Shown piece by piece: positions 1-57,284 of a stretch of 64,000 nt of DNA; within the stretch, counting starts at the first letter, position 1; each line of letters starts with the position of its first letter. The stretch comes from Bryobacteraceae bacterium (lineage in GTDB: Bacteria; Acidobacteriota; Terriglobia; Bryobacterales; Bryobacteraceae). Under the pieces are notes generated by a model that saw only the letters and a list, made by a program, of their open reading frames with translations, was not told where the DNA came from and did no database searches. The DNA is taken from assembly GCA_041946965.1 (NCBI GenBank), contig JBHGBM010000017.1, forward strand, positions 8,534-72,533, in the 5' to 3' direction. The translations under genes were made by a program, and so were the position numbers.

Positions 1-720
1 CTGACCAAACCGTTCTTGCAGTTCCGCCAGTTGGGACACACCAGGGAGCGCATCGTCCCGAACCGCGCGGTCTGGGCGGTGACGGGCAACAACGTGGCCG
101 TCTCGCGCGACATGGTGCGCAGGTGCTTCCGAATCAGGATCGATCCGCGCTGCGCTCAGCCGCATCTCCGGAAGAACTTCAAGCACCCGAACCTGGTGCA
201 GTACTGCAAGGCGGAACGTCCCGCGTTGCTCGCGGCGCTGCTGGTACTGATTCGCGCCTGGTACGCGGCGGGTAAGCCCGCGTTCGGCGGCACGGCGCTG
301 GGGACGTACACGGCTTGGAAGGAGATGGTGAGCGGCATCCTCAAGAACGCCGGCTTCGAGGACTTCCTCGGCAACCAGCGCACCCTGTACAGCGAGATGG
401 ACGTCGAGAGCGAGGAGTGGGAGTCGTTTCTGGCGCAAATCCACGAGCGCTTCGTGGCCGTGGAGTTCAGCGTGGCCGACATCGTGTCCATGATCCACGG
501 CGGGACGATTACCACGCTTCCCCGCGAGGTCGCGCGGATCTACGGCCAGTCCACCTCCCACAAGGAGACGAAGCCTAATCCCTTCTTCGCCGTGCAACTC
601 GGCCACATCCTGCGCGCTCATCGGGGGACGCGCTACGGCGAGCAGGAGATGTACCTGGAGCGCGGCACGGAGGACCGGCACCGTAAGGTCGTGCGCTACC
701 GCATCCGCATGGGGCGGTAG
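1..720 (+). CDS. C-terminal part of a P4/D5-type primase-helicase-like replication protein (5' end off-window)
   Basis: Frame 1 is open from base 1 to the stop at 718-720 (track ORF 16..720). The TGNN...RRCFRIRID segment followed by a helical C-terminal region resembles the part downstream of Walker B in phage/plasmid primase-helicases. It lies directly upstream of the iteron-like array. Confidence 0.4.
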   Translation: MTKPFLQFRQLGHTRERIVPNRAVWAVTGNNVAVSRDMVRRCFRIRIDPRCAQPHLRKNFKHPNLVQYCKAERPALLAALLVLIRAWYAAGKPAFGGTALGTYTAWKEMVSGILKNAGFEDFLGNQRTLYSEMDVESEEWESFLAQIHERFVAVEFSVADIVSMIHGGTITTLPREVARIYGQSTSHKETKPNPFFAVQLGHILRAHRGTRYGEQEMYLERGTEDRHRKVVRYRIRMGR

Positions 721-729
721 ACGAAACGG

Positions 730-963
730 TGCGGGCCTGCGGGTACTTGCGGGCATCTGGCGGGTGTGAGCGCGGCCGATACTCGCGGGTCGGCGGGCCT
801 TCTTTTCACATGCTTGCGGGCTCCTGCGGGTATTGCGGGTATTCCCGCGTATCCATGTGTGAAGGATGTGGATATTGTGCGCGCGTGAAAGATAGAGGGG
901 AATATACGCCCCGCGCCATTGAAGGCTGCCGGACCGATACCCGCATCCCCCGCAATACCCGCG
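730..963. repeat. Iteron-like array: direct (T)GCGGG(TAT) copies followed by inverted CCCGC(A/G) copies; putative origin or regulator-binding region
   Basis: TGCGGG occurs at 730, 738, 748, 815, 825 and 834, with variants TGGCGGG at 758, TCGCGGG at 783 and CGGCGGG at 791. Inverted CCCGCG/CCCGCA occurs at 844, 940, 949 and 958, with CCCCGCG at 909. Spacing is mostly 8-10 bp. GCGGG-TATT-CCCGC forms a palindrome at 835-848. Confidence 0.6.
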
Positions 964-1073
964 AGTGGGTCCTTCCGGGCGATTCCCGGCGGCGCGTTAC
1001 GCGATTGCACGATTTCGCCAGCGTCAGCAGAAAAAACAGGTGGTCGGTTGCCACGGAGGGGAGGGTGGAGCAC

Positions 1074-1523
1074 ATGGGCGTCAGCATTCGAAGCTATGCC
1101 AGGCACCGGGGAGTGAGCCATACCGCCGTGCAGAAGGCGATTGCCGCCGGGCGCATCTCGACCTTGCGGGACGGCTCCATCGACGCCACCGCAGCCGACG
1201 TGGAGTGGGAACGCAACACGTTCTACCCGCGGCCCGGCGGCGATAGCGCCGAGTTCAATAAGACGCGTACCGTCCACGAGCACTACCGGGCGCGGCTGGC
1301 GAAACTCGCGTACGAAGAGAAGGTCGGAACGCTGGTGTCGAAGACCGAGGTACAGGCAGCCGCTTTCCGTGAGTACCGCCGGTTCCGCGATCGCGTGCTG
1401 AACATCCCGGATCGCGTCGCGGCGCAATTTGCCGCCGAGACGGACGAGGCCAGGGTGCACGAAATCCTGAAGCAGGAGATTCGGAAGGCGCTGAACGAAT
1501 ACGCCGATGGCGCCAGTTCATGA
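1074..1523 (+). CDS. HTH DNA-binding protein resembling a phage terminase small subunit
   Basis: ATG 1074 is preceded by GGAGGGGAGGGTGGAG. The N-terminus MGVSIRSYARHRGVSHTAVQKAIAAGRI is the HTH typical of small terminase/Nu1-like proteins, and the C-terminal half is coiled-coil. The upstream part of track ORF 729..1523 is the iteron region, not coding. Confidence 0.55.
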   Translation: MGVSIRSYARHRGVSHTAVQKAIAAGRISTLRDGSIDATAADVEWERNTFYPRPGGDSAEFNKTRTVHEHYRARLAKLAYEEKVGTLVSKTEVQAAAFREYRRFRDRVLNIPDRVAAQFAAETDEARVHEILKQEIRKALNEYADGASS

Positions 1524-3580: not shown

Positions 3581-3722
3581 GCAAGCGGTCGGAGCTCATC
3601 GTTCGCGCTTCGGAACGTTGCTGGGCAGATCGGGACCTGGAACTGCTGAAATCAGATATGATTACGGGTCTCGGTTATTTCGTGGTGCTTGTACGGACGA
3701 AGTTACGAATATAGGAGGCAGC

Positions 3723-5246
3723 GTGCCAGATCCACTAACGTTCGAGGTCTTAAAGGAGGCAGTCGCTGGCGGCTCGGCTGCGTTTCGTTGTCGAACGAAG
3801 CTCGGTGCCATTGGAGAAGATGGCGATAAGGTCTTCCCCAGTACTTATGCCGGGGGCGTGTATGCCGTCGAGGATCGACGCATCGATGGCCGCATCGTTC
3901 GTTGCGTGGTCCTCGATAGTGTTCAGAGCCAGGCGAACCGCATGGAAGAACTCCTGCAGGAAGCGTTCCTTCCCAACTGGAGGGAAATGCCGACCGACGG
4001 AGATCCTTCCGATTGCGATCTGCCAATCGTCGCCGTCCATGTCGGGCGTCACGGCTGGATCACGTCTCTGACCGCACCGCATCGCATCCATGACGCGATT
4101 CTGCGCGATAGTGAACTCAACAGGACACGATTTCGAGATTCCGCTATAGGACAGGCAATCGTCGCGGCCCGCCTGCATAACGCGACGGCGTTTTACCGGT
4201 TCTGCCCCACAAGCCTGATCTTCGGGACCTGGGACTCGACAGCTGGCGAAGGCCTGGAGTCCGCCAAGATCCCAAGGGCCGTGGTTTCGGAAATCGTCGG
4301 CATCGATATCACACCAGGGGTGCGTACGGCCAGCCGTATCGACCCACTGGGGATCGAGCGCATGGAGACGACGTTCTATCGAAGAGGGAAATCAGGCTGG
4401 ACGTTCGAGGAGTCGGAAGCCGACAAAAAATACAAAAAGGGAAAAGGGTGGACCGAAGACATCAACCAAGCCGACAAGGATCCGAGCGGGAAACCAATAG
4501 AAACGAAGCCGATCATCTGGGGGACGAAGCCGTCAGATATCAATCACGGCAACGTGGTGCCCAATATTCCCCGCTTCGAACAGAAAGAGGTCCGAGACAA
4601 CAACCTCGGGAGGCTTACGGACATTCTGGAGTCGAATTCCCTCAGGCTGCGGGTGGACTTGGATTCCGCTGATAGCCGCCTGGAGAGCCACACGGCGTTT
4701 GATAGCGACAGGATGAGAATTCGCCCAGGCGCCATTAAGCCGGGTGGAGTAACCATGGCGTATGCTCTCCATACGTGGACTCTGTCGCTGACCCAGTTGC
4801 GGCGATTGCGGTTTCCGCTAGACCAGTCGAAGGCGAATGAGGCCGAACAGCGCAACTGTGCAGCACGAACCGTTCTCGCCAGTTTGGCGATTTACGGCTT
4901 GGCGCTACAACAAGAGCAGGGCTACTGGTTGCGTTCGCGATGCGAACTCATTCCGATTGCTGCCAAGGAGGGCAACGGTGCAGTGCTCCAGTTGATCAAC
5001 GCCGATGGCACCACTGCCGATTTCCAGGTCCCTACCATCTTGGCCGCGAAGCAATTGTTCGAGAAGGCCGTCCATGAGGCCGAAAGCGAGTCCAACGCAT
5101 CAGCCATCCACTGGGAAAAGCAGATCATCCGACTGACGCCGTCACCGCAATTGAAAAAACTCGTAGAGATGAGCGAAAAGCGTCAGCCGACGGGAGGTGA
5201 AGAGGAAGAAGTCGCGGTGGCCGACGATGCTGGCGATCAAAATTGA
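3723..5246 (+). CDS. csb1: Type I-G/I-U Cas7-like protein (Csb1 / GSU0053 family), unusually long (507 aa)
   Basis: GTG 3723 has AGGAGG 5 nt upstream. KVFPSTYAGGVYAVEDRRIDG...VVLDSVQSQANRMEELL matches the Csb1/Cas7u signature as I remember it (VFPPTY...LDSVQSQANR.E). The track ORF 3411 start is an upstream extension. Confidence 0.75.
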   Translation: MPDPLTFEVLKEAVAGGSAAFRCRTKLGAIGEDGDKVFPSTYAGGVYAVEDRRIDGRIVRCVVLDSVQSQANRMEELLQEAFLPNWREMPTDGDPSDCDLPIVAVHVGRHGWITSLTAPHRIHDAILRDSELNRTRFRDSAIGQAIVAARLHNATAFYRFCPTSLIFGTWDSTAGEGLESAKIPRAVVSEIVGIDITPGVRTASRIDPLGIERMETTFYRRGKSGWTFEESEADKKYKKGKGWTEDINQADKDPSGKPIETKPIIWGTKPSDINHGNVVPNIPRFEQKEVRDNNLGRLTDILESNSLRLRVDLDSADSRLESHTAFDSDRMRIRPGAIKPGGVTMAYALHTWTLSLTQLRRLRFPLDQSKANEAEQRNCAARTVLASLAIYGLALQQEQGYWLRSRCELIPIAAKEGNGAVLQLINADGTTADFQVPTILAAKQLFEKAVHEAESESNASAIHWEKQIIRLTPSPQLKKLVEMSEKRQPTGGEEEEVAVADDAGDQN

Positions 5247-6675
5247 GTATCTCACCGGCGTGTGCATGGCGACACGCCACAATGATCCCAGCCGCTCCAG
5301 TCCCGAGTGGCCGCCCCATCCTGACCGACTGTTCTCGGCACTCGTGGCCGCGGCCGGTAGCATGAGCGCTCCTGACCTGGAGCCGCCTGACCTCGCTAGA
5401 CGTGCATTGAAGTGGCTGTTGGAGCCATACCCAACGGGTGCTGGTGGCGCGCCACAACTTTGGGCATCCGAGGCCCGGGTTCGTTCGGCGCCCGACGTGC
5501 ATCTGCCTGCCAATCCACATCCGGATGAGAGAACCGTCTTCGGGATGTTGCCGGTGTATCGCAAAAAGGCGGCTCTTCCGGTCCCCGCCGTTATACCCGA
5601 CGAACCGGTAGTGTATTTCATTTGGCCACATGCCGAACCCGCCCTACACCTTGATGAGCTTCGAGCGATTTGTGACCGCGTCACGTATCTAGGCCGCTCG
5701 CGTTCACTCGTTCGCGCCTCGATCGCTGAAGACCCGCCGGCGCCCAGCTACGTTCCAGGTGAGCCGGCGGACCTTGAACTCCGTGTACCGGATTCCAACC
5801 GACTTGAATACCTGCTCAACAAGTATGAGCGCGACGGCGGAAAACCTGTTCCGTCCTTGCCAAAACCGTATCGCCGGACCGACCGGCAACTTCATACGGA
5901 GAAGCCCGTTGACAGCGTATTTGAGCGCTTTTGGGTGTTCCGGCCTCGTCGAGGAGACCCGCCGTTGCCTCTTGTGTCGACGCTGAGGTTGACCCAAGCG
6001 CTACGGAGGGCTCTGATCGCCGCAATTGAGGAGGACCAACGATCGCGCGGCATCGATCCACACGTGCCCGAGATCGTCCACGGGCATGGCAAGCACCCAC
6101 ACTGTGCCTATGTCGCCTTGCCCTTCGTTGATCCGCGCCAAAGGCGGGCCGACGGGATGATCAAGGGTGTTGCGTTGGTGTTGCCCCGCCGCATCGAGAC
6201 AGCAACTCTCCATGAGATTGCTCGAGGACTGATGTGGCTGCAGCGGAACGGACTCGTCATACCTGAAGTTGGTACCTGGCATATCGAAGAGGTTCCGCCC
6301 GATGATGCTCCGATCACAACTCTCGACCCACGCACATGGACAAACGCGGCGTGGGTTTGGACGACGGCGACGCCTATGGTGTTCGGCCACTACCCAAAAC
6401 CAAACCGCGGTGGAGAGGCAAGGGTCATTCTCGACAGTCTGAACATGATCGGTGTCGATCCCGAGCGTGTTATCGAAATCGGCGTGGGACGGCATTCCCC
6501 TCTTCACGGTGCAGCCCCGAGTTGGTGCTTCAAACCGCGTCAGGAGACAAACGACGGCTCGAAGCTCTGGCTGCGTCATGTAACGCTGCGATTCGACCGG
6601 CCGCTGTGTGGACCAATCGTTCTGGGGCGCACCCGCTATTTCGGGCTCGGGCTGATGCGACCCATGGGAGTTTGA
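5227..6675 (+). CDS. csb2: Type I-G/I-U Cas5/Cas6-fusion-like protein (Csb2 / GSU0054 family)
   Basis: The N-terminus MLAIKIEYLTGVCMATRHNDPSRSSPEWPPHPDRLFSALVAAAG matches the Csb2 signature (..L.GRY.AT....AEWPPHPARLFSALVAA). ATG 5227 overlaps the cas7-like gene by 20 nt. GTG 5197 is an alternative start. Confidence 0.75.
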   Translation: MLAIKIEYLTGVCMATRHNDPSRSSPEWPPHPDRLFSALVAAAGSMSAPDLEPPDLARRALKWLLEPYPTGAGGAPQLWASEARVRSAPDVHLPANPHPDERTVFGMLPVYRKKAALPVPAVIPDEPVVYFIWPHAEPALHLDELRAICDRVTYLGRSRSLVRASIAEDPPAPSYVPGEPADLELRVPDSNRLEYLLNKYERDGGKPVPSLPKPYRRTDRQLHTEKPVDSVFERFWVFRPRRGDPPLPLVSTLRLTQALRRALIAAIEEDQRSRGIDPHVPEIVHGHGKHPHCAYVALPFVDPRQRRADGMIKGVALVLPRRIETATLHEIARGLMWLQRNGLVIPEVGTWHIEEVPPDDAPITTLDPRTWTNAAWVWTTATPMVFGHYPKPNRGGEARVILDSLNMIGVDPERVIEIGVGRHSPLHGAAPSWCFKPRQETNDGSKLWLRHVTLRFDRPLCGPIVLGRTRYFGLGLMRPMGV

Positions 6676-6677
6676 TA

Positions 6678-9600
6678 ATGCCGGATCTTGAAGCCGTGCA
6701 GTTCGCGGATTTCTATGAGGCTGTGCACGGCTACGAGCCGTTCGAATGGCAGAAGCGGCTGGCTAAAGACATTCTTGAACACCACAACTGGCGCGATGTT
6801 CGCGTTCCGACCGGATGCGGCAAGACAAGCGTGCTGGATATCGCCCTATTCGAACTTGCCCTCCAGGCTGACTTGGCTCCCGAAAACCGGACAGCCTCTC
6901 GTCGCATCTGTTTCGTGATAGACCGCCGCCTGGTTGTGGACGAGGTTACTGAACACGCGATGGAAATCCGCCGTGCTCTCGGAGAAGCGAGAGCCGGCCG
7001 ACGGCAGGAGACAGTTCTTTGTACCGTGTCTCAGCGGCTCACGAAAATCTCAGCCGACCGGGACCAAGTGCTGCGCGTCGTCCGGCTGCGAGGCGGGGTG
7101 TATCGGGACGACGGGTGGGCGGCAGATCCACTCACGCCGACGGTCATCATCTCGACCGTGGACCAGATAGGATCCCGTCTTCTGTTCCGCGGATACGGTG
7201 TGAGCCCACGCAGTCGCTCTGTCCAGGCTGGTCTGCTGGGCTTCGACACCCGCATCATTTTGGATGAGGCTCACCTGGCGAGTGTCTTCGCGACTTCGCT
7301 GCAACACGTGCGCAGTTACCAAACTGATGCGAAGCGTCCGCCCCTTGGCCGTCAACGCGGCGTAAGCCTTGTTCGGATGTCGGCGACTGTGCACGAGAAA
7401 GATTGCTTCGAGCTCACGCGGGAAGAGCGAAAGGACAGGCGACTAGCGGCTCGGCTCAATGCCCATAAATGTGCCGAGTTGATCACGGTCAACGTGGAAT
7501 CGATCAGCAAGGACGAGCGAAAGAAGCAGCCACGCAAAGCCAAGGAGGTAGAGGCCAAGAATCGGCAGCACTTCGGCACCAGTGTCGCCGCTCTTGCGGA
7601 AACGTTCGCTTACGAAGATCCAGGGAAGCAAACTGGGCCTCGTGTTATCGGCGTGGTCGTGAACCGCGTTTCGACTGCCAGGACCGTGTTTGCCCGTTTA
7701 AGCACCACGAGAGGCGGGTACGCGCGCGACGTGATCCTTCTCACCGGCCGAATTCGGCCTTTCGATCGAGACCGGCTACTTCAGCTTTGGTTGCCCAAGA
7801 TCCGCGCAGGCCGCAACACTGATTTGAACAGACCGTTGTTCGTCGTCGGTACACAGACAGTGGAGGTCGGCGCGAATCTCGATTTCGACGCTCTTGTGAC
7901 CGAGGCGGCACCGTTGGATGCCTTGCGCCAACGGTTCGGCCGACTGGACCGTCTCGGCAGGCGACACGAACGTGGCTTGGCCTCCCCGGCGGCGATCGTC
8001 ATTCGGAGCGATCAGAAAAGCAGTGCGTTTGACGATCCGGTCTATGGCACCGAAACCGCAGAGACCTGGAGGTGGCTTAACAGCAAGGAGGTTCTCGGGA
8101 AGGCGAAACGCATCGATTTCGGCGTGAACCACCTCGATCCGAAGCTCAGCAAGTTACAGCCGCCAATTTCGCCGGGCATCATGGCACCTTTGCTGTTCCC
8201 ATCTCATCTCGACGCGTGGGCGCAAACCAACCCGGAGCCGGATCCGGATCCCGACCTGGAGCCGTTCCTGCACGGTACTGCAGGATCTGCTGCTGACGTC
8301 CAGATCGTCTGGCGAGCGGATCTTATCGACAGCAACGAGCTCCAATGGCGAGAAATCGTCGCTCTCATGCCACCACGCACCCGCGAGTCGCTGCCGGTTC
8401 CGGTCTACGAAGTGCGGAGTTGGCTGCGTAAGCAAGCCGCAGGCGAGATTGCGGATCTTGAAGGGGGCGCGTTCGACGTATCGGCTGAAATGGGTGCGCC
8501 ATATCGTCGCGTGCTGCGATGGTTCGGTTCCGATGATAGTCGTACCCGTCTTGCCGGTCCCGATCAAGTGAGGCCGGGCGATACAATCGTCGTTCCGGCA
8601 AGCTACGGTGGCGCGGACACTTTCGGCTGGAATCCTGAATTCAGTGAGGCTGTTTCGGACGTGGCCGAACCTTGTCTCGTGCAACTCGTTAACTCCTATC
8701 CGAAAACCGCTCTAAGGCGTCCGAGAGTTCGGCTCCGGTTGCATCCACACCTTCTCCCCAGCGCTAAAGAATTGCCGCTTGACCGAGTTCGCGGATTCTT
8801 TCGCGCCGCCGTGGATGCGGTCCGAGCGCACGACCAAGACTCTTGGCCTGCAATTGAACGGATCTTGCGTGCCATTCGGCCTTATGTGAGGGAGGCGGAA
8901 CGCGCAGCGGCTATCGATGCAATCCTACAGGCAAAGGATCGACCACAGGTCCGTCTTTACCCGCAGCAGGATGCTTTCGTGTTGACCGCTGATGTACGAC
9001 TTCCCCTCGCCGCGCCCGAAGCTCCGGCATCAGAGAATGCGGAGTTTGAGGAACCCGAAGACGACGAGATGTCGTTCAGATCCGACGGCCACCCGATTAC
9101 ACTCCTGAAGCATACGGCTGCTGTGCGAAAGAGTTGTGCCAAATTCGCCCGAGCGTGCGGGCTGGAAAAGGAGGTGCGCCGCGCTCTACTGCTCGCAGCC
9201 TCCTGGCACGACGTGGGAAAGCGCGATGCGCGATTCCAGGCATGGCTTCACGGCAGCGAGGTAAAGGCCCTCGTGGCACTTGCAGGCGATGAGCCACTGG
9301 CAAAGTCTGGCCGCGATCCGCGGAACTGGAAATCTTCTGAGGTATTTGGGTATCCGAAGGGTTTGCGCCATGAGTTCGTTTCGGTGCGTCTGCTGGAGCA
9401 GGCGGTTGGCCTACGGTGTTCTGACCCTGACCTCGCGAGGCTCCTGGTCGGCACCCACCACGGCTATGGGCGAGCATTCGCGCCGGCAACTGAGGATAGG
9501 AAACCAGTCGAGGTGTCTGTTCGTGTGAACGGAAACCTGATCGCCGTCTCGACTGACCACCGACTCTACCGTGCTGATAGCGGTTGGACGGATCTGTTCT

Positions 9601-9692
9601 GGAGAATGGTGCGGCGGTATGGTTGGTGGGGGCTTGCCTTTTTGGAAGCCCTGCTCATTACCTCCGACCGACTCGTGTCAGCGCGAGAGTGA
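6678..9692 (+). CDS. cas3: Cas3 helicase-nuclease with C-terminal HD domain (type I-G/I-U architecture), 1004 aa
   Basis: ATG 6678 lies 2 nt after the csb2 stop. The protein has Walker A VPTGCGKTS, DEAH box ILDEAHLAS, and C-terminal HD motifs LLKHT...SWHDVGKRD...GLRHEF...VGTHHGYGRAF. Confidence 0.8.
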   Translation: MPDLEAVQFADFYEAVHGYEPFEWQKRLAKDILEHHNWRDVRVPTGCGKTSVLDIALFELALQADLAPENRTASRRICFVIDRRLVVDEVTEHAMEIRRALGEARAGRRQETVLCTVSQRLTKISADRDQVLRVVRLRGGVYRDDGWAADPLTPTVIISTVDQIGSRLLFRGYGVSPRSRSVQAGLLGFDTRIILDEAHLASVFATSLQHVRSYQTDAKRPPLGRQRGVSLVRMSATVHEKDCFELTREERKDRRLAARLNAHKCAELITVNVESISKDERKKQPRKAKEVEAKNRQHFGTSVAALAETFAYEDPGKQTGPRVIGVVVNRVSTARTVFARLSTTRGGYARDVILLTGRIRPFDRDRLLQLWLPKIRAGRNTDLNRPLFVVGTQTVEVGANLDFDALVTEAAPLDALRQRFGRLDRLGRRHERGLASPAAIVIRSDQKSSAFDDPVYGTETAETWRWLNSKEVLGKAKRIDFGVNHLDPKLSKLQPPISPGIMAPLLFPSHLDAWAQTNPEPDPDPDLEPFLHGTAGSAADVQIVWRADLIDSNELQWREIVALMPPRTRESLPVPVYEVRSWLRKQAAGEIADLEGGAFDVSAEMGAPYRRVLRWFGSDDSRTRLAGPDQVRPGDTIVVPASYGGADTFGWNPEFSEAVSDVAEPCLVQLVNSYPKTALRRPRVRLRLHPHLLPSAKELPLDRVRGFFRAAVDAVRAHDQDSWPAIERILRAIRPYVREAERAAAIDAILQAKDRPQVRLYPQQDAFVLTADVRLPLAAPEAPASENAEFEEPEDDEMSFRSDGHPITLLKHTAAVRKSCAKFARACGLEKEVRRALLLAASWHDVGKRDARFQAWLHGSEVKALVALAGDEPLAKSGRDPRNWKSSEVFGYPKGLRHEFVSVRLLEQAVGLRCSDPDLARLLVGTHHGYGRAFAPATEDRKPVEVSVRVNGNLIAVSTDHRLYRADSGWTDLFWRMVRRYGWWGLAFLEALLITSDRLVSARE

Positions 9693-9712
9693 TTCCGGAG
9701 CGAGATAGGAAA

Positions 9713-10657
9713 ATGAGCGACCTAGAACTTTCTGGCCTCCGAGGGCACCACCCTCTCGGGTTTCTTGCCGCGTGCGGAGTCTTGCGTTCTTGCACTGGGC
9801 CCACGGGTGACGGCAAGGTCAGCCTGTACTGGAAACACGCGGCTGATGGATCCGGGTGGATTGCGGTGCTACATCGGTATAGCAGTTTGCAGTCGAGATC
9901 TTTGTTACGGCTCCTGATCTGCAAAGCCGGAATTCAACGGAAATCGCCTGCGCTAAACTGGTCGAGCAAGATCGATGATCGAAAAAAATACCGCGAGGTG
10001 GGGCTCTCGCTAATTGAGAACCGATCGGATCTGGGCAATTCGGATGCGCTGGCTGTTCTGGCCGCACTCGCATCTGACATAGTCGCCGACGGCAAGGATA
10101 AGCTTGAAGCAACTTCGCTGGATCTGACCTCAGGCAACCAACGGTTACTGAAGTCATTGCAGGAACTCTCGGCGGATCTCTCCAAGTCGCCAAAACGTTC
10201 CGGCTATGTGCCGCCGGGCGCGGCTGCATTTAAGGAAGCGATCTTCGGTCCCTGGCGATATCAGGACACCGCGCACTCCTTGGGGTGGGATCCTCAGACG
10301 CAACGGTTGCATGCGCTCCGCCACAAACTGCCAGAACAGGACAAAGCAGGTCGATCTGTGCGTGCAGCAGTCTTCCTGGCCAGTCAAGCTTTCCCACTAT
10401 TCCCGTGCTTTGCTGTGAACGGGAAGCTTCGCACGACTGGTTTTCACCCGGAAGGTCGCGACGAATACTTTGCGTGGCCCATCTGGCGGGAACCGATCTC
10501 GTTGTGCGCGCTCAGATCATTGCTCGCCCTGCCGTTAAATGATCTGAGGATGCGGGGAGTTGAAGTCGTTTACCGCTGCCGGCGCGTACGCACGGGTGGC
10601 TCAGAGGGGAACTATCAGATCTTCAGTAATGCGGAGGAGTGGCCATGGCGCGCGTAA
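9713..10657 (+). CDS. Short Cas8u/Csx17-like (or Csb3-like) candidate subunit, 314 aa
   Basis: ATG 9713 lies 20 nt after the cas3 stop. The N-terminus LSGLRGHHPLGFLAACGVLR resembles the Csx17/Cas8u N-terminal motif (GC...PL..YLKALGVLRL). The C-terminus has a FAWPIW.EP motif. The protein is much shorter than the roughly 700-aa Csx17 as I recall it. Confidence 0.45.
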   Translation: MSDLELSGLRGHHPLGFLAACGVLRSCTGPTGDGKVSLYWKHAADGSGWIAVLHRYSSLQSRSLLRLLICKAGIQRKSPALNWSSKIDDRKKYREVGLSLIENRSDLGNSDALAVLAALASDIVADGKDKLEATSLDLTSGNQRLLKSLQELSADLSKSPKRSGYVPPGAAAFKEAIFGPWRYQDTAHSLGWDPQTQRLHALRHKLPEQDKAGRSVRAAVFLASQAFPLFPCFAVNGKLRTTGFHPEGRDEYFAWPIWREPISLCALRSLLALPLNDLRMRGVEVVYRCRRVRTGGSEGNYQIFSNAEEWPWRA

Positions 10658-10718
10658 TCCGTCCCGGCATTTTGCCGCGTTGTTCGATCCATCTCCGTGT
10701 GTCCGCGCGTTCTCTACG

Positions 10719-10963
10719 ATGGATGTGCGGGTGTCAACGGACAAGAGGCTGACGAAGCATGGCAACAGCTTGGCGCTGGTCATTGACCGGCCGATTTTGA
10801 ACTCCTGAAGATAGATGCCGAAACTCCGGTGAGTGCCACGAAGGATGGGCACCGCCTGAGCATCGAGCCCGCCGGACGATCCGAAAGAAGACAGAGGTTC
10901 GAGACGGCCCAAACGATGGCGCATGAGCATTACGGTAAGGCGTTCGAGAGGTTCGCTGACTGA
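10719..10963 (+). pseudogene. AbrB/MazE/SpoVT-type antitoxin gene disrupted by a 1-nt frameshift near 10799
   Basis: MDVRVSTDKRLTKHGNSLALVIDRPIL stops at 10806-10808. The +1-shifted frame continues ELLKIDAETPVSATKDGHRLSIEPAGRSERRQRFETAQTMAHEHYGKAFERFAD to TGA 10961-10963. Together they reconstitute a typical AbrB-fold antitoxin. There is no adjacent toxin partner. Confidence 0.5.
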
Positions 10964-11045
10964 TCGTTCCCGTCAATGACGCGGTTGGCGGTTCCCCGTG
11001 AAGGCGCGCCAACTGCGATACAATGTATCTCAGGAGGGACAAGCT

Positions 11046-11300
11046 ATGGCGACGACGATGGTTCACGTCCGCGTGGACGAAAGGACGAAGGATCGGGCCG
11101 CGAAGACACTGGCCGGGATGGGCCTGTCTGTGTCCGATGCCGTCCGCATGTTGCTGGTCCGCGTGGCCGCCGAGAAGGCGTTGCCCTTCGAGGTGAAGGC
11201 GCCTAACCCCACCACCGCAAAAGCCATGCGCGCCGCCGACCAGGGCAAGGGAAAACGGCACGGTTCTGCCGACGCACTCTTCAAAGACCTGGGGATCTGA
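11046..11300 (+). CDS. dinJ: RelB/DinJ family antitoxin
   Basis: ATG 11046 is preceded by CAGGAGGGAC. VHVRVDERTKDRAAKTLAGMGLSVSDAVRMLLVRVAAEKALPFEV...ADALFKDLGI aligns closely with E. coli DinJ. Confidence 0.85.
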   Translation: MATTMVHVRVDERTKDRAAKTLAGMGLSVSDAVRMLLVRVAAEKALPFEVKAPNPTTAKAMRAADQGKGKRHGSADALFKDLGI

Positions 11301-11303
11301 TCG

Positions 11304-11570
11304 TTGCGGACACCGATCAGCGGCGCCCAGTTCCGCCGCGATGCGAAACTGGCGCAGAAGCGCGGCAAGGACATGGCGAAACTGCGGGAAGTTATCCTGC
11401 TGCTTGTCGAGGGAAACCCGCTGCCGGCCCGGTACAAGGATCATCCGCTCAGCGGCGAGTGGAGCCACCACCGCGATTGCCACATCGAGCCGGACTGGCT
11501 GTTGATCTACAAGGTGAACGGTGACGACCTCTACCTGGTCCGCACGGGAACGCATTCGGACCTGTTCTGA
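11304..11570 (+). CDS. yafQ: YafQ/RelE family mRNA interferase toxin
   Basis: TTG 11304 lies 3 nt after the dinJ stop. FRRDAKLAQKRGKDMAKL...PARYKDHPLSGEWSHHRDCHIEPDWLLIYKV...RTGTHSDLF matches YafQ (KLAQKR.KDM...YKDHPL.G.W...RD.H.EPDW.LIYK...RTGTH..LF). Confidence 0.85.
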   Translation: MRTPISGAQFRRDAKLAQKRGKDMAKLREVILLLVEGNPLPARYKDHPLSGEWSHHRDCHIEPDWLLIYKVNGDDLYLVRTGTHSDLF

Positions 11571-11860: not shown

Positions 11861-11881
11861 TGAAAACACGTCATCCCCACA

Positions 11882-11926
11882 TTCGTAATCAGCAGGTCGC
11901 CGGTTCAAGCCCGGCGGGTGGCTCCA
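11882..11926 (+). other. tRNA-Thr(CGU)-like 3' half only (anticodon loop to CCA); putative attR of the integrated element, not a functional tRNA
   Basis: The fragment reads ttCGTaa loop, tcagc, variable aggtc, T arm gccgg-ttcaagc-ccggc, acceptor 3' strand gggtggc, t, cca. The upstream 30 nt has no matching 5' acceptor strand (gccaccc), no D arm and no 5' anticodon stem strand. Confidence 0.6.
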
Positions 11927-12539
11927 TCGAATTGAAACGGAGTCCGTCCATCACAATCGCCGATTCCCAAGAAGTTGTACGCCCAAGACGATCCGTCCTT
12001 ACCAGCACGCGTTCAACGCGGCCGACATCCGGCCAGCGTTGAAATCCGGCGTGCCGGCGACGATGGAGAGCGGCCGCTTGAAGGCCATCCGCGCAAGGCC
12101 TTGCGCGGCGCCTTACAGTGAAGATGAAGTCCATGGTGCTGCGCTTTAACGAACGACGAGCGACCGAAGCTGCCGTGCGCTTCCTCAGATGGCGACGCGA
12201 TGATCGTGGATGCACGGCGGTTGGAGGCCGAGATCGCGGCCGGCCTGGCTCTGGTTCGCGAGAAGTGTTCAGCCGCCACCCTGAGACTTGTGCAAGACGG
12301 CGTGGTTGCATCGCTCTTCACCAGACCGAAAATCCTTCGTTCTTGCCGAGAACACTGGCGGCGATAGAGGCGCGGACTGCCTGGGCTCGCCGCGCGTCCG
12401 CGCGTTATGCCTGGTGCAGCCCCTACCCTACCCCACCACCAGACAAAACAGACCCCTTAAGCATTCCAGGGTGTATACTGTCCCCCGGGCCGGCTGCGAG
12501 AGCGGCATCCCGGCCCCGGATCGGTCTTCAGGAGGTTTT

Positions 12540-15500
12540 ATGCGGATTCAGTTTCTGTGCCCGATCCTGGCGCTGGCGAGTGTTCCCGGGTTGCAGGCCC
12601 AGGATGCCCGCGGCGACATCATCGGGCGTGTCAGCGATCCTACGGGCGCGGTGGTGGCCGGCGCCACCGTCCGCGTGGTGAGGACCGCCGCCAACGTTCA
12701 AAACACGGCGATCACCAACGAGACAGGCGATTACACGCTGGCGTTCCTGATCCCCGGCGAGTACGAATTGTCGGTCGAGGCTGCCGGCTTCAAGAAGTTC
12801 GTGCAGCAAGGCATCAGCGTGCGCGTAAGCGAGAGGATCACCATGAACGTCACGCTGGAGGTCGGCTCCATTACCGAGACGGTGAAGGTGGTGGGCGAGG
12901 CGCCCCTGGTGGAATCCGCCACGGCATCGCTCGGCCAGGTGGTCGATCAGAGACGCATCGCCGAACTGCCATTGAAAGACGGCAACCCGATGATGCTGGC
13001 GGATCTCAGTCCGGGCGTCTTTTTCACCGGCACCCTGGCGTGGTCGCGTCCGTTCGACAACAGTTCGCCGTCCTCCATGGCGACCAACGGCGCGCGGTCC
13101 GGCACGAACGAGTACACCATGGACGGCGCTCCCAACAACGGGGCGATGAACGGGAACGTGGCCTATGTGCCGCCCACGGCCGTGGTTGAGGAGTTTAAGA
13201 TCCAGACTTCCACTTTCGACGCCAGCGTCGGCTTCGCGACCGGCGCCGCGATCAACGTCAGCCTCAAGTCCGGCACCAACGACTTGCACGGCACCCTGCA
13301 CGAATTTCTCCAGAACACGTCCCTGGGGGCCAACAGCTTTTTCTCGAACACGGCCGGCCGGCCCCGTGACGTGAACCGCCAGAACCGCTGGAGCGCCTCC
13401 GGCACCGGGCCGGTGTACATCCCCAAGCTGTACAACGGCAAGAACGTGACCTTCTGGATGTATGGTTACGAAGGCATCGCGGACTACTTCCCGCGCGAGA
13501 CCCTGACCACCAGCGTGCCGAACGAGAAGCTGAAGCAAGGGGACTTCTCAGACCTGCTGAAGATCGGCTCGATCTACCAGATCTACGACCCCAAGACCAT
13601 CCAACTCGCGCCGGGCGGGCGCACCAGCCGCCAGGTCTTCCCGGGCAATATCATCCCCGCGAGCCGGATCGATCCTATCGCGGTCAAGCTCCTGCCGTTC
13701 TATCCAAAGCCCAACCTGCCCGGCACGGCGGACGGCACGAACAACTACACCACTCCGAATTCCGACACGGACAACTTCTTCAGTCACATCTTCCGCATCG
13801 ACCACAACTTCAGCGAGAATCACAGGGCCTTCTTCCGCGGGCACGCCAACCGGCGTTTCCAGCGCACCGCGCACCAGTTTCGCGGCACCGGCCTGCCTCC
13901 CACCAACGGAACCAACAACTGGCGGCAGAACCGGGGCGCCGTGATCGACGATGTGTACGTCTTCAGCCCGCAGTTCCTCATGAACACGCGCTACAGCTAC
14001 ACCCGTTACTTCGAGCCGGTTGACGCGCTGACCTCGGGCTGGAACCCGGCCGAGTACGGTTTCTCGCAGAAACTTGTGGACCAGATCAGAAGGGAAGATC
14101 CGCGGCGTCTCCAGTTGCCGGAAATCGCACCGGCGGGCTACTACGCCCTGAGCGCTTCCAACCGGGCCGCCAACCACGCTGAAATTCACGCGTTCGCCGC
14201 CAATTTCACCCGCATGGTGCGAGCCCACACGCTGCGTTTCGGCGCCGAGCACCGCATCTACCGCAACAACAACGCGGGGCTTGGCAGAGGTTCGGGAAGC
14301 CTGACCTTCAGCACGAACTGGACCCGGGGACCGTTGGACAACTCGCCGACGGCGCCCATGGGTCAGGGGCTGGCCAGCTTCCTGCTGGGATTGCCGACCA
14401 GCGGCTACATCAATGTCAACGACTCCCTGGCGCAACAGGCCACTGTTCCGTCGTTCTATTTCCAGGACGACTGGAAGATCACCCGCAAGCTGACCTTCAA
14501 TCTGGGCCTGCGCTACGAGATCGACCGCCCGCTGACGGAGCGCTTCAACCGCACGGTACGGGGATTCGATTCCGCCGCCGCCTTGCCCATCGAGGCGGCG
14601 GTGCAGGCCAACTACGCCCGCAGCCCGATTCCGGAGGTGGCCCCCGGCCAGTTCCGGGTGCGCGGAGGACTGACCTTCGCGGGTGTGGGCGGACAGCCGC
14701 GGACTCTCTGGAACACCAATACGAGGAACTTCTCGCCCCGCGCCGGCCTGGCCTACCAGATCAACATCCGTACGGTGGTCAGGGCCGGTTATGGCTTTTT
14801 CTACGACCTCGACCGCCAAAGCGTAAATCAGATCGGTTTCAGCCAGCAGACCTCCCTGGTTCCCACGGTGGATCAAGGCGTGACGTTCATAGCCAGCACA
14901 GCAGACCCCTTCCCGAACGGCTGGAGCCAGCCAACCGGCGCCTCGCTGGGCGTGATGACTTACGCCGGCCAGAGCATCAGCTTCTTCAACCCCGACCTGT
15001 TGACGCCTTACATGCAGCGGTGGCAGATCGGGGTGCAGCGCGAACTCGCCGGCCAGACGGTGGCGGAGCTGGCGTACGTCGGCAGCCGCGGGACCAGACT
15101 ACGGACAAGCCGGGCGCTGAACGCCGTGCCGCGGCAGTACTACAGCACGCTTCCGGCGCGCGATCAGCCGTGGATCGACTACATCACGGCGGCGGTCGCC
15201 AACCCGTTCTACCCGCTGCTGCCGGGGACCAGCCTGGCGGGGTCCACCGTCGGGCGTTCGCAATTGCTGAGGCCGTTCCCGCAGTTTACGGGCGTCAGCT
15301 ACACCACCAATGAAGGTTACTCCTGGTATCACTCGCTTCAGACGCGCTTCGAAAAACGGCTCTCCGCCGGTTACACCGTCTCCGTGGCGTGGACCTGGTC
15401 GAAGTTCATGGAGGCCACCGGCTTCCTCAACGAGACCGATCCGCGGCCCGAGCGGGTCATTTCGGACCAGGACCGCACCCATCGGCTGGTGGTCACGGGC

Positions 15501-16007
15501 ATTTACGAGCTGCCGTTCGGCAGGGGCAAGCGCCTGCTGGCTTCCACCAGAGGCGTGGCCGGAAAGCTGATCAGCGGGTGGCAGGTCTCGGGCATCTACC
15601 AGGGCCAGTCCGGCGCCGCGCTCGGTTTCGGAGACGCGATCCTTTATGGGAACCTGAAAGACATTCCGATCGCCAATTCCGCGCGGACCGCGCAGCGCTG
15701 GTTCAACGTCGATGCCGGCTTCGAGCGGGCTTCGGCGCGGCAGCGCTCCTGGGCCATCCGCACCCTGCCTTCGCGCTTCAGCGGCATTCGGGCCGACGGC
15801 ATCAACACTTGGGATCTTTCGGTCATCAAGAACACCCATTTCCGGGAGAGGGGCTACGTCGAGTTCCGGACTGAGTTTATCAACGCCTGGAACCACACAC
15901 AGTTCAGCGCTCCCAACACGACTCCGACCAGTACGGCGTTTGGGTCGGTGAATGCGGTCGCGGTCTTCCCGCGCATTGTTCAGCTCGCGTTGCGGGTGGT
16001 GTTCTGA
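12540..16007 (+). CDS. TonB-dependent receptor with N-terminal carboxypeptidase-regulatory-like domain (1155 aa)
   Basis: ATG 12540 has AGGAGG just upstream. A signal peptide MRIQFLCPILALASVPGLQA is followed by GRVSDPTGAVVAGATVRVV...TGDYTLAFLIPGEYELSVEAAGFKKF. The C-terminus ends ...LALRVVF. Confidence 0.85.
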   Translation: MRIQFLCPILALASVPGLQAQDARGDIIGRVSDPTGAVVAGATVRVVRTAANVQNTAITNETGDYTLAFLIPGEYELSVEAAGFKKFVQQGISVRVSERITMNVTLEVGSITETVKVVGEAPLVESATASLGQVVDQRRIAELPLKDGNPMMLADLSPGVFFTGTLAWSRPFDNSSPSSMATNGARSGTNEYTMDGAPNNGAMNGNVAYVPPTAVVEEFKIQTSTFDASVGFATGAAINVSLKSGTNDLHGTLHEFLQNTSLGANSFFSNTAGRPRDVNRQNRWSASGTGPVYIPKLYNGKNVTFWMYGYEGIADYFPRETLTTSVPNEKLKQGDFSDLLKIGSIYQIYDPKTIQLAPGGRTSRQVFPGNIIPASRIDPIAVKLLPFYPKPNLPGTADGTNNYTTPNSDTDNFFSHIFRIDHNFSENHRAFFRGHANRRFQRTAHQFRGTGLPPTNGTNNWRQNRGAVIDDVYVFSPQFLMNTRYSYTRYFEPVDALTSGWNPAEYGFSQKLVDQIRREDPRRLQLPEIAPAGYYALSASNRAANHAEIHAFAANFTRMVRAHTLRFGAEHRIYRNNNAGLGRGSGSLTFSTNWTRGPLDNSPTAPMGQGLASFLLGLPTSGYINVNDSLAQQATVPSFYFQDDWKITRKLTFNLGLRYEIDRPLTERFNRTVRGFDSAAALPIEAAVQANYARSPIPEVAPGQFRVRGGLTFAGVGGQPRTLWNTNTRNFSPRAGLAYQINIRTVVRAGYGFFYDLDRQSVNQIGFSQQTSLVPTVDQGVTFIASTADPFPNGWSQPTGASLGVMTYAGQSISFFNPDLLTPYMQRWQIGVQRELAGQTVAELAYVGSRGTRLRTSRALNAVPRQYYSTLPARDQPWIDYITAAVANPFYPLLPGTSLAGSTVGRSQLLRPFPQFTGVSYTTNEGYSWYHSLQTRFEKRLSAGYTVSVAWTWSKFMEATGFLNETDPRPERVISDQDRTHRLVVTGIYELPFGRGKRLLASTRGVAGKLISGWQVSGIYQGQSGAALGFGDAILYGNLKDIPIANSARTAQRWFNVDAGFERASARQRSWAIRTLPSRFSGIRADGINTWDLSVIKNTHFRERGYVEFRTEFINAWNHTQFSAPNTTPTSTAFGSVNAVAVFPRIVQLALRVVF

Positions 16008-30733: not shown

Positions 30734-33700
30734 TTAAAACATGAGCCGCAGGCGCGCCGCCAGAAAGCGTCCGGCGGTGCCCGCGTCCTGCGCGGCCTGC
30801 GAGCCCATCTCGCCGAACCGCCGCGTGGCCTGAATCTGCGCCACGGTGCTGGGCGCCGAGATGTTCGCCTGCGGCGGATTGAAATTCGGGTGGTTGAGAA
30901 CGTTCAGCATGCTTAGCTGAAAGTCGAGATGAGTATGTTCATTCACCCGCACTAGCCGCTTGGTGAAGTTGAGATGCTGGGTGTTGAGTCCCGGCCCCTC
31001 AATCGTATTCACGCCGCAGTTCCCGAAGCGCCCGATATTGGCCGGCGGCATCACGAACGCATCGGGATTGAACCAGCGGTTGATGCGGCGCTCCGAGGGC
31101 GGAAGGTTGGGATTCGCGATGCAATCCGGACGCAGGCCGCTCGTGGTGCCGATGCCGGCGAGGTCGCGCCCGCTCATGGTCGCGTTTACGTAGCGCCCGG
31201 TCTCCATGAAGAACATGGAGGATACGGTCCACCCTCCGGCGATCTGATTCAGCACTGCCGGCAGCCTGTGACGCCGGCCGGCGCCGAACGGGAGTTCCCA
31301 GATCACGGAGCCGTTGACCCTATGGCGGACGGCATACGGTTCGCGGCCGCGATCGCGGCGGCGGTCGAAGGGGTTCTCGAGAGTGGGGCCGAGATCCGAG
31401 CGCGCGTCGCCCACGTCCGAGATGAGGTTGCTCCAGGTCCAGGCCGCCTGGAAGTACAGCGCGCGTCCGAACCGCCGTTCCACCTCCGTCTGTAGCGCGT
31501 GGTAGATCGAGTTGCCGCCGTTCTCGGAGAACAGCAGGACCCCGTATTGCCGGTACGGCCGCCGGCTGCTGCTGAACGGCGTCGTACTCGGCAGCGGGAC
31601 GTTCACCTCCTTGGTGTAAACCAGGCTGGTTCCCTTGGTGCCGATGTAGGAGAGCCGCACTCCGACGTCGCCGAATTCGCGCTCGAGGGTCAGGTTCCAC
31701 TGCTGCGAGTAGGGATTGCGCAGGGCGACGTTGAAGCCGTTTGCCGTGATGGTGCCGCTGCTCCCCGATTCTCCGAACGGATTGGGAAACACGTACTGCG
31801 GCGCCCGCCTGTTGGTGTTCTGGAAGATCTCGCTGTAAGCGTACAGCGGGCCGGCGCTCGGGCCGGCGACCGAAAACCCGAAATCGTCGATGAACATGCC
31901 GTAGCCGGCGCGGATCACTGTCTTAGGGAGCGGCCGTATGGCCAGGCCAATGCGGGGCACGACGTTGTTCTTGTCAACGGCGCGCAGCGACTGCGGGTAT
32001 CCCGCTTCGCTCGCCTTCACGATGCTGATGCCCGGAAGCCGCGGGTTGATCTTGCCCGAGTTGAGCGCGGGGTCCGGCACCACCAGCGCCATGGTGCGGG
32101 GGTCGAGGTTGTACATCAGGCCTTCGCTGTCGGTCACCGGAGACTGGTACTCGTACCGGGCGCCCAGGGTGAGGGTGATCTTTGAACTGGCCCGCCACGC
32201 ATCCTCGAAGAAGTAATACCAGCTCTTCCCGCCGATGTCCTGATATTCGCGATAGGTGGCGCGGGTCGCGCGCTCGGGCAGGCCGAGGAGGAAATCGGCG
32301 TAGGAATTCCCGCTGAAGAACCCGTTGAAGGCGAAAGTTCCAAAAGTGCTCGATGACATATTCACACCCTCGGTGCCGTTGTGGACGAGATCGACGCCCC
32401 CTTTGAAGGTGTGCCTTCCGCGGATCCAGGTCAGGTTGTCCGCCAGGGTCCAGGAGTGGTAGCGGTCCACGGTGTGGTTGGTGGACTGTGCGGCGGTCAC
32501 CTGCCCGCCGCCGCTGAAGGTGAACGCCGGCATGCCGCGATAATCGCCCGGCGGCGTGAGACCCTGGATGCCGGTGTACCGCAGCACCTCGATGCCGCTG
32601 AGCGCGGCGAGTACCTGGTTGGGGCTGCTCTGTCTTCCGAACCGGAATTCGTTGATCAGCGAGGTTCCGAACGAATGCGTGTCGGAAAGCACGAACGTAG
32701 GGCCGCGGCGGTAGCCGTTGCGCACAGGGATAGTGGGCAGGTTTTCATTCGGCTCCTGAACCGCACCGCGCCAGGAATAGCGCGCGTACAGCATGTTCTG
32801 GTTGGAGAGTTTCTGGTCCAGGCGCGCCTCCCAACGGTTGGCGATGTTTCTCCCCAGCATCTGGGTACGGTGGTTGTTGGTGGTGAGCACGCCGGGGTCC
32901 CCGGAGTTCGGCAGCGGATAGAAGCGCTCCTGCACGCGTAGCGAAACGGGGCTGAAGCGGCTTGCCGGAATCGCGTTGCCGGGGAAGGGGATCCCCGTGG
33001 CGGGGTCGGTGATCGCGGCAAATGCGGAAAAATCGCCCTGGCGCATGGCGGGCGTCGGCACGGTGGCGTTCAGCGGGGTGGCGCCCGGAACGCGCTGGCC
33101 GAACAGAGAAATCATGAAGAACGTCCGGTCCCGGCCGTTATAGAGCTTGGGAATGAAAACGGGGCCGCCGACGACGGCGTTCGCCGTGTGGGTTTTCGAG
33201 CTTGGCTTCTTTGCGGTGAAGAAGTCCCGGGCGTCCAGCGCCGAGTTATTGTGCTGGTAGTATGCCGATCCGCGCAGTTGGTTGGTGCCGCTCCTGGTAA
33301 CAATGGAAACCACTCCGGGAGCTTGAAATTCGGCGCTGTTATTGCTGCCGTGCACGCGCACTTCCGCCACCATCTCGGTAGTGTTATGGGTTCCGGTCAG
33401 CGGAGTGCTGCTGCGCGGGGCGGCAATGCCGTCGATCATCGTGTCGGTCTGGGCCGCGCGGGCGCCGTTGAAGGCGTAAGTATTGATGCTGACGCTCTGG
33501 GCGCCGGGCATGGTGAGCAGATAGGCGAAGGTGGACTCGTTGCTCAGGATGGGCAGGTCGCGGAGCTGGCGAGCGCTCCGTGTATCGGCGATCTGGGCCG
33601 TTTCGGTCTCAATGACGGGCGTGGAAGCGCTCACCTGCACTTCGACAGACGTGCTCCCGACCTCCAACTGAACGTCGATGCGCACCACGGCGCGGCTTTC

Positions 33701-57113: not shown

Positions 57114-57245
57114 TGCGAGAGAGCAGGAGGGAACGCGCTTCCGGCGGCCGATTCGCCGCTATGAAGTGAATTCTAGGATTGCCGGGATGCCGAGTCCACG
57201 CTGCTTTTGGTTATGGTACGTCCGTAACACCAACGTGTGTCGCGA

Positions 57246-57275
57246 TTGACTTTTCCCGCGGGCCTTGAACATAAT
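57246..57275 (+). promoter_or_regulatory. Putative promoter TTGACT-18-CATAAT placed so that the TBDR mRNA would be leaderless or nearly so
   Basis: TTGACT at 57246-57251 and CATAAT at 57270-57275. ATG 57285 lies only 9 nt downstream and has no SD sequence. Confidence 0.35.
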
Positions 57276-57284
57276 TGCCGCATC

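Follow-up and report, generated by a model that had tools for sequence, protein, structure and literature searches.

A type I-G CRISPR-Cas interference cassette without a neighbouring array or adaptation genes on a putative phage-derived island of a Bryobacteraceae bacterium

A cassette of four CRISPR-associated (cas) genes in a Bryobacteraceae bacterium raises the question of what an effector is when no guide source is encoded beside it: a new kind of system, or a known one that has shed some of its parts? We analysed 64,000 nt of contig JBHGBM010000017.1 (assembly GCA_041946965.1, forward strand, positions 8,534-72,533), hereafter the window, in which the cassette occupies positions 3723-10657 with all four genes on the plus strand (Table 1). 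An earlier sequence-only reading of this DNA had described a type I-G/I-U-like cassette lacking an array and adaptation genes, had seen departures from the canonical I-G locus in its gene order and in the small size of its fourth gene, and had offered two explanations, a mobile interference-only module that borrows CRISPR RNAs (crRNAs) and an exapted effector with a different guide or trigger. Judged from its protein families, the cassette almost certainly encodes the interference module of a type I-G CRISPR-Cas system (formerly I-U) in its short-Cas8g (Cas8u1-type) variant. It is a fairly ordinary partial locus, and its array-less state has already been described for I-G.

The first three genes fall into established type I-G families. 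Csb1, Csb2 and Cas3, which the sequence-only reading had named from short signatures, score well above the cut-offs of the hidden Markov models (HMMs) TIGR02570 (38 bits), TIGR02165 (45 bits) and TIGR02621 (cas3_GSU0051, 400 bits), and the fourth protein exceeds the 65-bit cut-off of NF049934. The genes are as tightly packed as that reading had reported: csb2 overlaps csb1 by 17 nt, and gaps of 2 nt and 20 nt separate csb2 from cas3 and cas3 from the fourth gene. The GTG start codon of csb1 sits four bases past an AGGAGG motif. Csb2, the Cas5-Cas6 fusion that is the signature of type I-G, aligns to TIGR02165 over its full length (residues 1-479 of 481) and, by analogy, is predicted to process crRNA and to bind the 3' handle. 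Csb1/Cas7g and Cas3g are both recognised by their HMMs, the latter with the type I-G arrangement of helicase first and HD nuclease last (helicase motifs at residues 44-50 and 196-199, HD models over residues 809-940). A sequence search of the PDB with Csb1 returned no match.

Table 1. Positions in the window of the cassette genes and of the features around them.
Feature	Position	Strand	Length, matches and remarks
Phage-type DNA primase/polymerase-like gene, 3' part	1-720	+	Truncated by window start; phrog_10537 4e-30, phrog_19930 "DNA polymerase/primase" 1.3e-18; no Pfam match
Terminase small-subunit-like gene	729-1523	+	phrog_57 "terminase small subunit" 6e-34
Leader upstream of csb1 (probable promoter/5' untranslated region; promoter predicted)	3646-3722	+	Conserved with L080; AGGAGG ribosome-binding site; left edge of the unit common to L080 (blastn homology begins at 3646)
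csb1 / Cas7g	3723-5246	+	507 amino acids (aa), backbone subunit; GTG start; PF09617 1.4e-45, TIGR02570 74 bits, PADLOC Cas7g 3e-45
csb2 / Cas5-Cas6 fusion	5230-6675	+	481 aa; TIGR02165 231 bits, PADLOC Cas56g 1.8e-107
cas3g	6678-9692	+	1004 aa; N-terminal superfamily 2 (SF2) helicase, C-terminal HD nuclease; TIGR02621 732 bits, PADLOC Cas3g 6.5e-239, PF22590, PF18019
Gene 4, predicted short Cas8g-like large subunit (Cas8u1-type; "Cas3-extension family")	9713-10657	+	314 aa; NF049934 213 bits, PADLOC PDLC01514 1.7e-63
RelB-family antitoxin	10998-11300	+	PF04221 1.8e-19; likely start ATG 11046
YafQ/ParE-family toxin	11304-11570	+	PF15738 YafQ_toxin 3.2e-34
tRNA-Thr(CGU) 3' fragment, predicted attachment-site (att) remnant	11881-11926	+	46 nt, anticodon loop to CCA; identical to the 3' 46 nt of the complete tRNA-Thr(cgt) gene in L083 (103-178); single copy in window

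The fourth gene (gene 4) belongs to no Pfam family, and a PDB search by sequence gave no match. It is, however, a member of the curated NCBIfam family NF049934 ("type I-G CRISPR-associated protein, Cas3-extension family") and matches the PADLOC model PDLC01514 ("Cas8g, CAS-I-U effector_LS"), and it has at least 209 homologues, each of about 300-330 aa. An AlphaFold2 model built from an alignment with 29 homologues reached a predicted local distance difference test score (pLDDT) of 77 and a predicted template modelling score (pTM) of 0.83. Foldseek compared this model with the PDB and returned a single significant match, the type I-G effector 8b2x (E = 6.7e-4, probability 1.0, query TM-score (TMq) 0.47), in which the aligned chain of 649 residues is one that we take to be Cas8g. 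The family and PADLOC matches together with the fold match thus identify gene 4, at the level of family models and predicted structure, as a putative short and divergent Cas8g-type large subunit; membership in the Cas8g family was read from those models and the fold.

Searches with gene 4 found no match in GenBank phages or in IMG/VR and one plasmid match in PLSDB, and the cassette is therefore not generally phage-borne. The plasmid, pAcX50e of Azotobacter chroococcum (L084), carries cas7u-csb2-cas3u-hypothetical without cas1, cas2 or cas4. Directly 3' of its cassette lies a mini-array (L084 10018-10233) of three 72-nt units with a repeat part ending in GTTGAAGG. The "spacers" are nearly identical, as if one spacer had been duplicated instead of a series having been acquired.

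Neither the gene order nor the small fourth gene turned out to set the cassette apart. We collected relatives from GTDB species representatives (at least 46 loci) and JGI metagenomes (at least 28), plus three by exact look-up; they are cited below by L numbers. Every fetched locus that covers the cassette has the order csb1-csb2-cas3-gene 4, and such loci occur in Acidobacteriota, Planctomycetota, Pseudomonadota, Nitrospirales, Thermoplasmata, Paceibacterota, Mycobacteriaceae and others. The order csb1-csb2-cas3-cas8u1 is one of two published I-G layouts, reported in myxobacteria (PMC11237760), and a M. heckeshornense locus reads csb1-csb2-cas3-hyp-IS1380-cas1-cas2 (PMC10333696). Likewise, Cas8g is known in three size variants (PMC9638904), and the short protein has its own curated family. 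The two features first taken as departures from canonical I-G are thus already known. The same myxobacterial study reports that the I-G adaptation module is sometimes missing and that I-G arrays (36 bp, tail TTGAAGC) occur both beside cas genes and scattered over the genome (PMC11237760). More generally, the nearest CRISPR is over 20 kb away, or there is none at all, for about 12% of cas clusters (PMC7145637).

The sequence-only reading had reported no array and no Cas1, Cas2 or Cas4 in the 64 kb, and this held under every search we made. Across the whole window, Tandem Repeats Finder, a direct-repeat search (copies up to 120 nt apart) and a k-mer chain finder detected no CRISPR array. The same k-mer chain finder picks up arrays in 20 related loci, in which 5 to 97 repeats of 36 nt have the form xTTTCCGCG...CGCGGCCxCATTGAAGC and end in ATTGAAGC; the L001-type repeat is AATTCCGCGGTCGCGCGACCGCGGCCCCATTGAAGC. 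A pattern search of the window with this repeat form and with the repeat of the closest relative gave nothing above chance, an nhmmer profile of 15 related repeats had its best hit in the window in a coding region (E = 1.2), and an Rfam search of the window had no match. For the adaptation module, tblastn with the proteins of five related loci found no Cas1, Cas2 or Cas4 in the window, and HMMs from 18 Cas4-Cas1 fusions and 26 Cas2 proteins gave a best E value of 0.12 against all six-frame open reading frames (ORFs) of at least 50 aa. The 64 kb therefore hold neither the Cas4-Cas1 fusion and Cas2 of a type I-G adaptation module nor an adjacent array of 36-nt repeats, over 3.7 kb upstream and 53 kb downstream of the cassette. 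Behind gene 4 we also looked for remains of the 5' part of cas2, by local alignment with 2000 shuffles as control; in the window the alignment did no better than the shuffles, 304-962 of which reached the observed score, and in L080, with 80-232, the signal is marginal.

A consistent absence of arrays and cas1/2/4 from homologous cassettes, raised in the sequence-only reading, is not what the relatives show. In those that have an adaptation module or array, it lies mostly downstream of gene 4 and consists of cas2, a cas4/cas1 fusion and an array of 36-nt repeats. L080, which is 87% identical to the window at the nucleotide level between window positions 3646 and 10682 and has unrelated flanks, also lacks cas2 downstream of gene 4. 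Neighbour-joining on Cas3 pairs L080 with the window and nests the two among L081, L001, L052, L056 and L058, each of which carries cas2, cas4/1 or an array on the downstream side. This nesting makes the absence in the window a derived loss. The other array-less loci fall in several separate places in the tree, including a small clade with array-less members only (L009/L071/L013); being array-less does not define a lineage of its own.

Array-less cassettes are nevertheless unevenly distributed. We scored all loci with enough flanking sequence for cas2, cas4/1 and/or an I-G array beside the cassette. The window's clade, which has a long Csb1 (~500 aa), comprises 13 loci with these elements (L001, L052, L054, L055, L056, L058, L062, L065, L066, L068 and L081, plus L063 and L064 with repeats directly downstream) and 14 without them (L004, L006, L007, L009, L010, L011, L013, L043, L057, L071, L073, L075, L080 and the window). 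In the more distant clades with a short Csb1 (~385 aa), 24 loci have them and three do not. The array- and adaptation-less fraction is thus 14/27 in the window's clade against 3/27 elsewhere (Fisher p = 0.003).

The long Csb1 of the window's clade exceeds that of other I-G clades by about 120 aa and has insertions at residues ~210-250 (lysine- and acidic-rich) and ~290-340 (~50 aa, ahead of a conserved GGVT motif). We considered these insertions as the mark of a new array-independent lineage and rejected the idea: they are present in array-bearing and array-less members alike, including the array-bearing L001.

Some relatives have strongly reduced arrays. Two-repeat I-G mini-arrays occur upstream of csb1 in L012 (1799-1893) and L031 (2840-2945), and right after gene 4, without intervening adaptation genes, in L063 (4647-4756) and L064 (2896-3023). 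These mini-arrays point to a spectrum of reduced architectures from complete to fully array-less loci. Closed or isolate genomes with an array-less cassette include OY762824.1 (Pseudomonadales), OZ244051.1 (Vicinamibacterales), Roseospira goensis JA135 and R. visakhapatnamensis JA131. tRNA genes lie near several array-less cassettes: a tRNA-Gly(GCC) on the opposite strand about 125 bp downstream of gene 4 in the Roseospira loci L010 (3193-3267) and L011 (11089-11163), and a tRNA-Ser 2.2 kb upstream of csb1 in L013. Array-less cassettes may often sit at tRNA-linked islands.

The four genes of the window are full length and, compared with their homologues, carry no inactivating lesions. Of the alignment positions with 95% or higher conservation among array-bearing relatives, the window retains 90/93 in Csb1, 55/56 in Csb2, 156/159 in Cas3 and 34/35 in gene 4, and every deviation is conservative. 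The Cas3 motifs that the sequence-only reading had judged intact are all conserved in the alignment (Walker A P44-T50, DEAH 196-199, HD 844-845, H898 and H927/H928). Csb2 retains H450 in its Cas6-like C-terminal region and the C-terminal glycine-rich loop. In the B. animalis I-G system, H520 is the catalytic residue, and H122/R123 of Csb1 are implicated as well (bioRxiv 10.1101/2022.08.19.504415); by position, H450 of the window's Csb2 is the likely counterpart of H520, and H120/R121 of its Csb1 that of H122/R123.

Ratios of nonsynonymous to synonymous substitution rates (dN/dS, Nei-Gojobori method) are low in all pairs compared. Array-less pairs gave 0.10-0.22 (window and L080, dS 0.31-0.73), 0.14-0.23 (L009 and L013) and 0.19-0.27 (L007 and L057), and array-bearing pairs gave 0.17-0.18 (L001 and L081) and 0.14-0.19 (L056 and L058). 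All four genes of the window thus evolve under purifying selection, with values in the range of the other pairs, and the array-less cassettes are not visibly decaying.

Composition and gene content point to the cassette being low-GC cargo at the distal end of a phage-derived island. The GC content of the cassette is 59.1% against 66% for the chromosome, a real difference that is milder than the ~53% against ~65% of the sequence-only reading. At third codon positions (GC3) it is 0.63-0.65 compared with 0.76-0.91 in every neighbouring gene (about 0.64 versus about 0.84), which argues for a horizontal origin. The mobile-element setting proposed earlier is borne out by phage-type replication and packaging genes, present as ORFs at 1-1523, and by an att remnant at the other side. 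The terminase small-subunit (TerS)-like ORF has tblastn matches to phage TerS genes, e.g., of Rhodobacter phage RcKemmy and Acidithiobacillus phage AcaML1 (4e-28). The C-terminal fragment of the primase/polymerase is directly followed by the TerS-like gene, and no structural genes occur before the att some 10 kb further on. By analogy, this layout would fit a satellite, reminiscent of phage-inducible chromosomal islands (PICI) or P4-like elements, or a prophage remnant.

Elements with a tyrosine integrase can target the 3' halves of tRNA genes. The tRNA-Thr island of the sequence-only reading is represented in the window by a 46-nt 3' fragment of tRNA-Thr(CGU), but not by a tRNA gene: ARAGORN found no full tRNA gene in the window. 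An Rfam search around 11.6-12.1 kb did not report the fragment, which was confirmed by its identity to a full tRNA-Thr gene. We read it as the putative att remnant, derived from the 3' part of a tRNA, at the right end of the island, with the full-tRNA copy outside the window. Since it is a plus-strand 3' fragment without a complete tRNA to its left, the island extends to the left past position 1, and the integrase and the intact tRNA would lie beyond view. A partial copy of tRNA-Thr(CGU) without a full tRNA is also present in a 56-kb IMG/VR viral contig (L082, 6111-6155), and a complete tRNA-Thr stands at the end of another viral contig (L083, 103-178). With these two copies, phage-like elements appear to use tRNA-Thr(CGU) repeatedly for integration.

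The flank ORFs of the window have no homologue in any fetched locus. The RelB/YafQ pair lies between the cassette and the att remnant, and L080 has a minus-strand RelE/helix-turn-helix gene at the corresponding place; the neighbours of the cassette have thus been swapped between close relatives. A stretch at 10708-10963 that by eye resembled a frameshifted AbrB/MazE-type antitoxin was dropped, as its repaired translation has no Pfam match. By Pfam, the predicted genes at 12.3-64 kb (TonB-dependent receptors, glycosidases, a phosphotransferase system, oxidoreductases) are ordinary chromosome and belong only to housekeeping families. Within 50 kb, this part includes three large TonB-dependent-receptor-like outer-membrane proteins with an N-terminal CarboxypepD_reg domain (12288-16007, 30734-33982 and 57237-60938). 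Taken with the best hits of the cas genes, which are Bryobacterales-like, these proteins indicate a host from the Acidobacteriota.

Our preferred explanation, which we consider probable though well short of secure, is that the cassette is an interference-only I-G module, intact but stripped of its own array and adaptation genes, which sits on a phage-derived island and uses I-G crRNAs made elsewhere. Following the characterised I-G systems of T. sulfidiphilus and B. animalis (PMC9638904; bioRxiv 10.1101/2022.08.19.504415), Csb2 would cut I-G-type pre-crRNA and remain on the 3' hairpin, about seven Csb1 subunits would coat the guide as a backbone, and the short Cas8g would tether the complex to Cas3, which would nick and unwind guide-matched DNA and degrade it. 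As no guide is encoded nearby, the crRNAs would have to be supplied in trans by I-G-type arrays, either at other places in the genome or on the portion of the island left of the window. The module would then supplement the interference capacity of the host or the island, or substitute for it, while having no adaptation of its own. We infer this trans-guide step because the genes are constrained, the processing residues are retained and precedents have been published.

Several points weigh against this explanation. No array or crRNA is visible, so the supply of guides in trans is wholly inferred, and a scan for a sigma-70 consensus upstream of csb1 found no match. In the array-less L051, on a Pseudomonadales chromosome, cas3 is divided into two ORFs of 378 and 567 aa (6970-10004), which may be incipient pseudogenisation or a frameshift of long-read assembly. 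In addition, should the window and L080 have lost their arrays separately and not long ago, most of the purifying selection may be older than the loss. The split cas3 would also suit a recently orphaned remnant, in which the adaptation genes and array were deleted, or the effector operon alone was transferred, so that intact genes without a compatible array have no function and will decay. The array-less state is derived inside an array-bearing clade, in about half of the long-Csb1 loci the array or adaptation genes beside the cassette are gone, a sign that they are lost easily and often, and orphan cas clusters are a known minority class (PMC7145637). Yet the window has four full-length ORFs with essentially every conserved residue, its constraint was measured against L080, which has the same array-less junction region, and the array-less-only L009/L071/L013 clade and the L007/L057 pair are as constrained as array-bearing pairs. 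We regard such a remnant as a rather unlikely, if serious, alternative to the module that works with guides supplied in trans.

The locus might instead be an ordinary one that is merely split, with its array and cas2-cas4/1 further left on the same tRNA-Thr island, outside the window, and the system complete though rearranged. The island does pass position 1, as the plus-strand att fragment with no full tRNA to its left implies, and adaptation genes or arrays lie upstream of csb1 in L018 and L032, as do the mini-arrays of L012 and L031. The 3.7 kb upstream of csb1, however, hold the phage-like primase and TerS genes and small ORFs but no cas gene and no repeat, and the large majority of relatives with an adaptation module have it downstream of gene 4, which leaves this arrangement improbable. 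Least credible of all, at a very small probability, is the exapted effector of the sequence-only reading, which would need no guides from CRISPR, or would use some other RNA or trigger, and would act as a new defence or inter-element weapon in analogy to Tn7-CAST and type IV systems. Array-less cassettes do recur and stay under selection, and this one rides on a mobile island. Overall, though, we found nothing that supports it. No gene beyond the four cas genes is conserved in the flanks of array-less loci, and searches for conserved non-coding elements, structured or repeated, were negative. Array-less loci do not form one separate lineage but occur scattered between array-bearing relatives, the Csb1 insertions are shared with the array-bearing L001, and Csb2 H450 and Csb1 H120/R121, implicated in pre-crRNA cleavage, are conserved along with all Cas3 motifs.

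Compared with published csb1-csb2-cas3-cas8u1 loci (PMC11237760, PMC10333696), the cassette has the same four effector genes in the same order and from the same HMM families, and the 36-nt repeats of its relatives end in TTGAAGC; it differs in lacking the adaptation module and array and in being predicted cargo of a tRNA-Thr-integrated phage-like island. With the T. sulfidiphilus I-G effector (Cas8g1/Csx17 variant; 8b2x; PMC9638904) it shares the Csb2 Cas5/6 fusion and the Cas7g backbone. The Cas3 of that effector has a C-terminal HD domain, as does the Cas3 of the window, and is a stable part of the complex through Cas8g. The Cas8g proteins themselves differ (649 aa against 314 aa, no detectable sequence similarity, and a structural overlap that is only moderate at TMq 0.47), as does the gene order. 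The cas cluster of the window, with no CRISPR within 20 kb, resembles the distant or orphan clusters of Bernheim et al. 2020, for many of which arrays in trans are the accepted explanation (PMC7145637).

Type IV-A systems on plasmids (bioRxiv 10.1101/2023.06.23.546257), type III-G systems (PMC12669027) and Tn7-associated I-F/I-B systems (bioRxiv 10.1101/154229) are likewise located on mobile elements, lack adaptation genes and presumably rely on arrays or machinery elsewhere. They are, however, fixed and distinct lineages with lost or replaced nucleases and with DinG or Tns proteins as partners, whereas the window has an intact Cas3, no conserved partner and complete canonical loci as its closest relatives. 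Pfam scans of the predicted genes of the window found no Tns or DinG protein. A more speculative possibility, which we put forward only tentatively and think somewhat doubtful, is that I-G cassettes confined to interference, with Cas3 fully active, represent a stable and recurrent lifestyle rather than debris, and that the window's island exploits the crRNAs of resident I-G arrays, or of the arrays of other elements, against competing phages and elements. If true, type I would have in these cassettes a nuclease-competent equivalent of the type IV and III-G systems that borrow guides.

The finding does not overturn current understanding, as adaptation-less I-G loci, scattered I-G arrays and distant cas clusters are all published. 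It serves chiefly to correct the annotation: this locus is best recorded as an interference-only, partial type I-G system with a short Cas8g rather than as a new class of effector. The window copy would illustrate how a module with Cas3 travels on a phage-related element among Acidobacteriota-like soil bacteria. For the family as a whole, the enrichment of array-less cassettes in one clade, and the purifying selection on them, argue that I-G effectors are often retained to work with arrays that act in trans.

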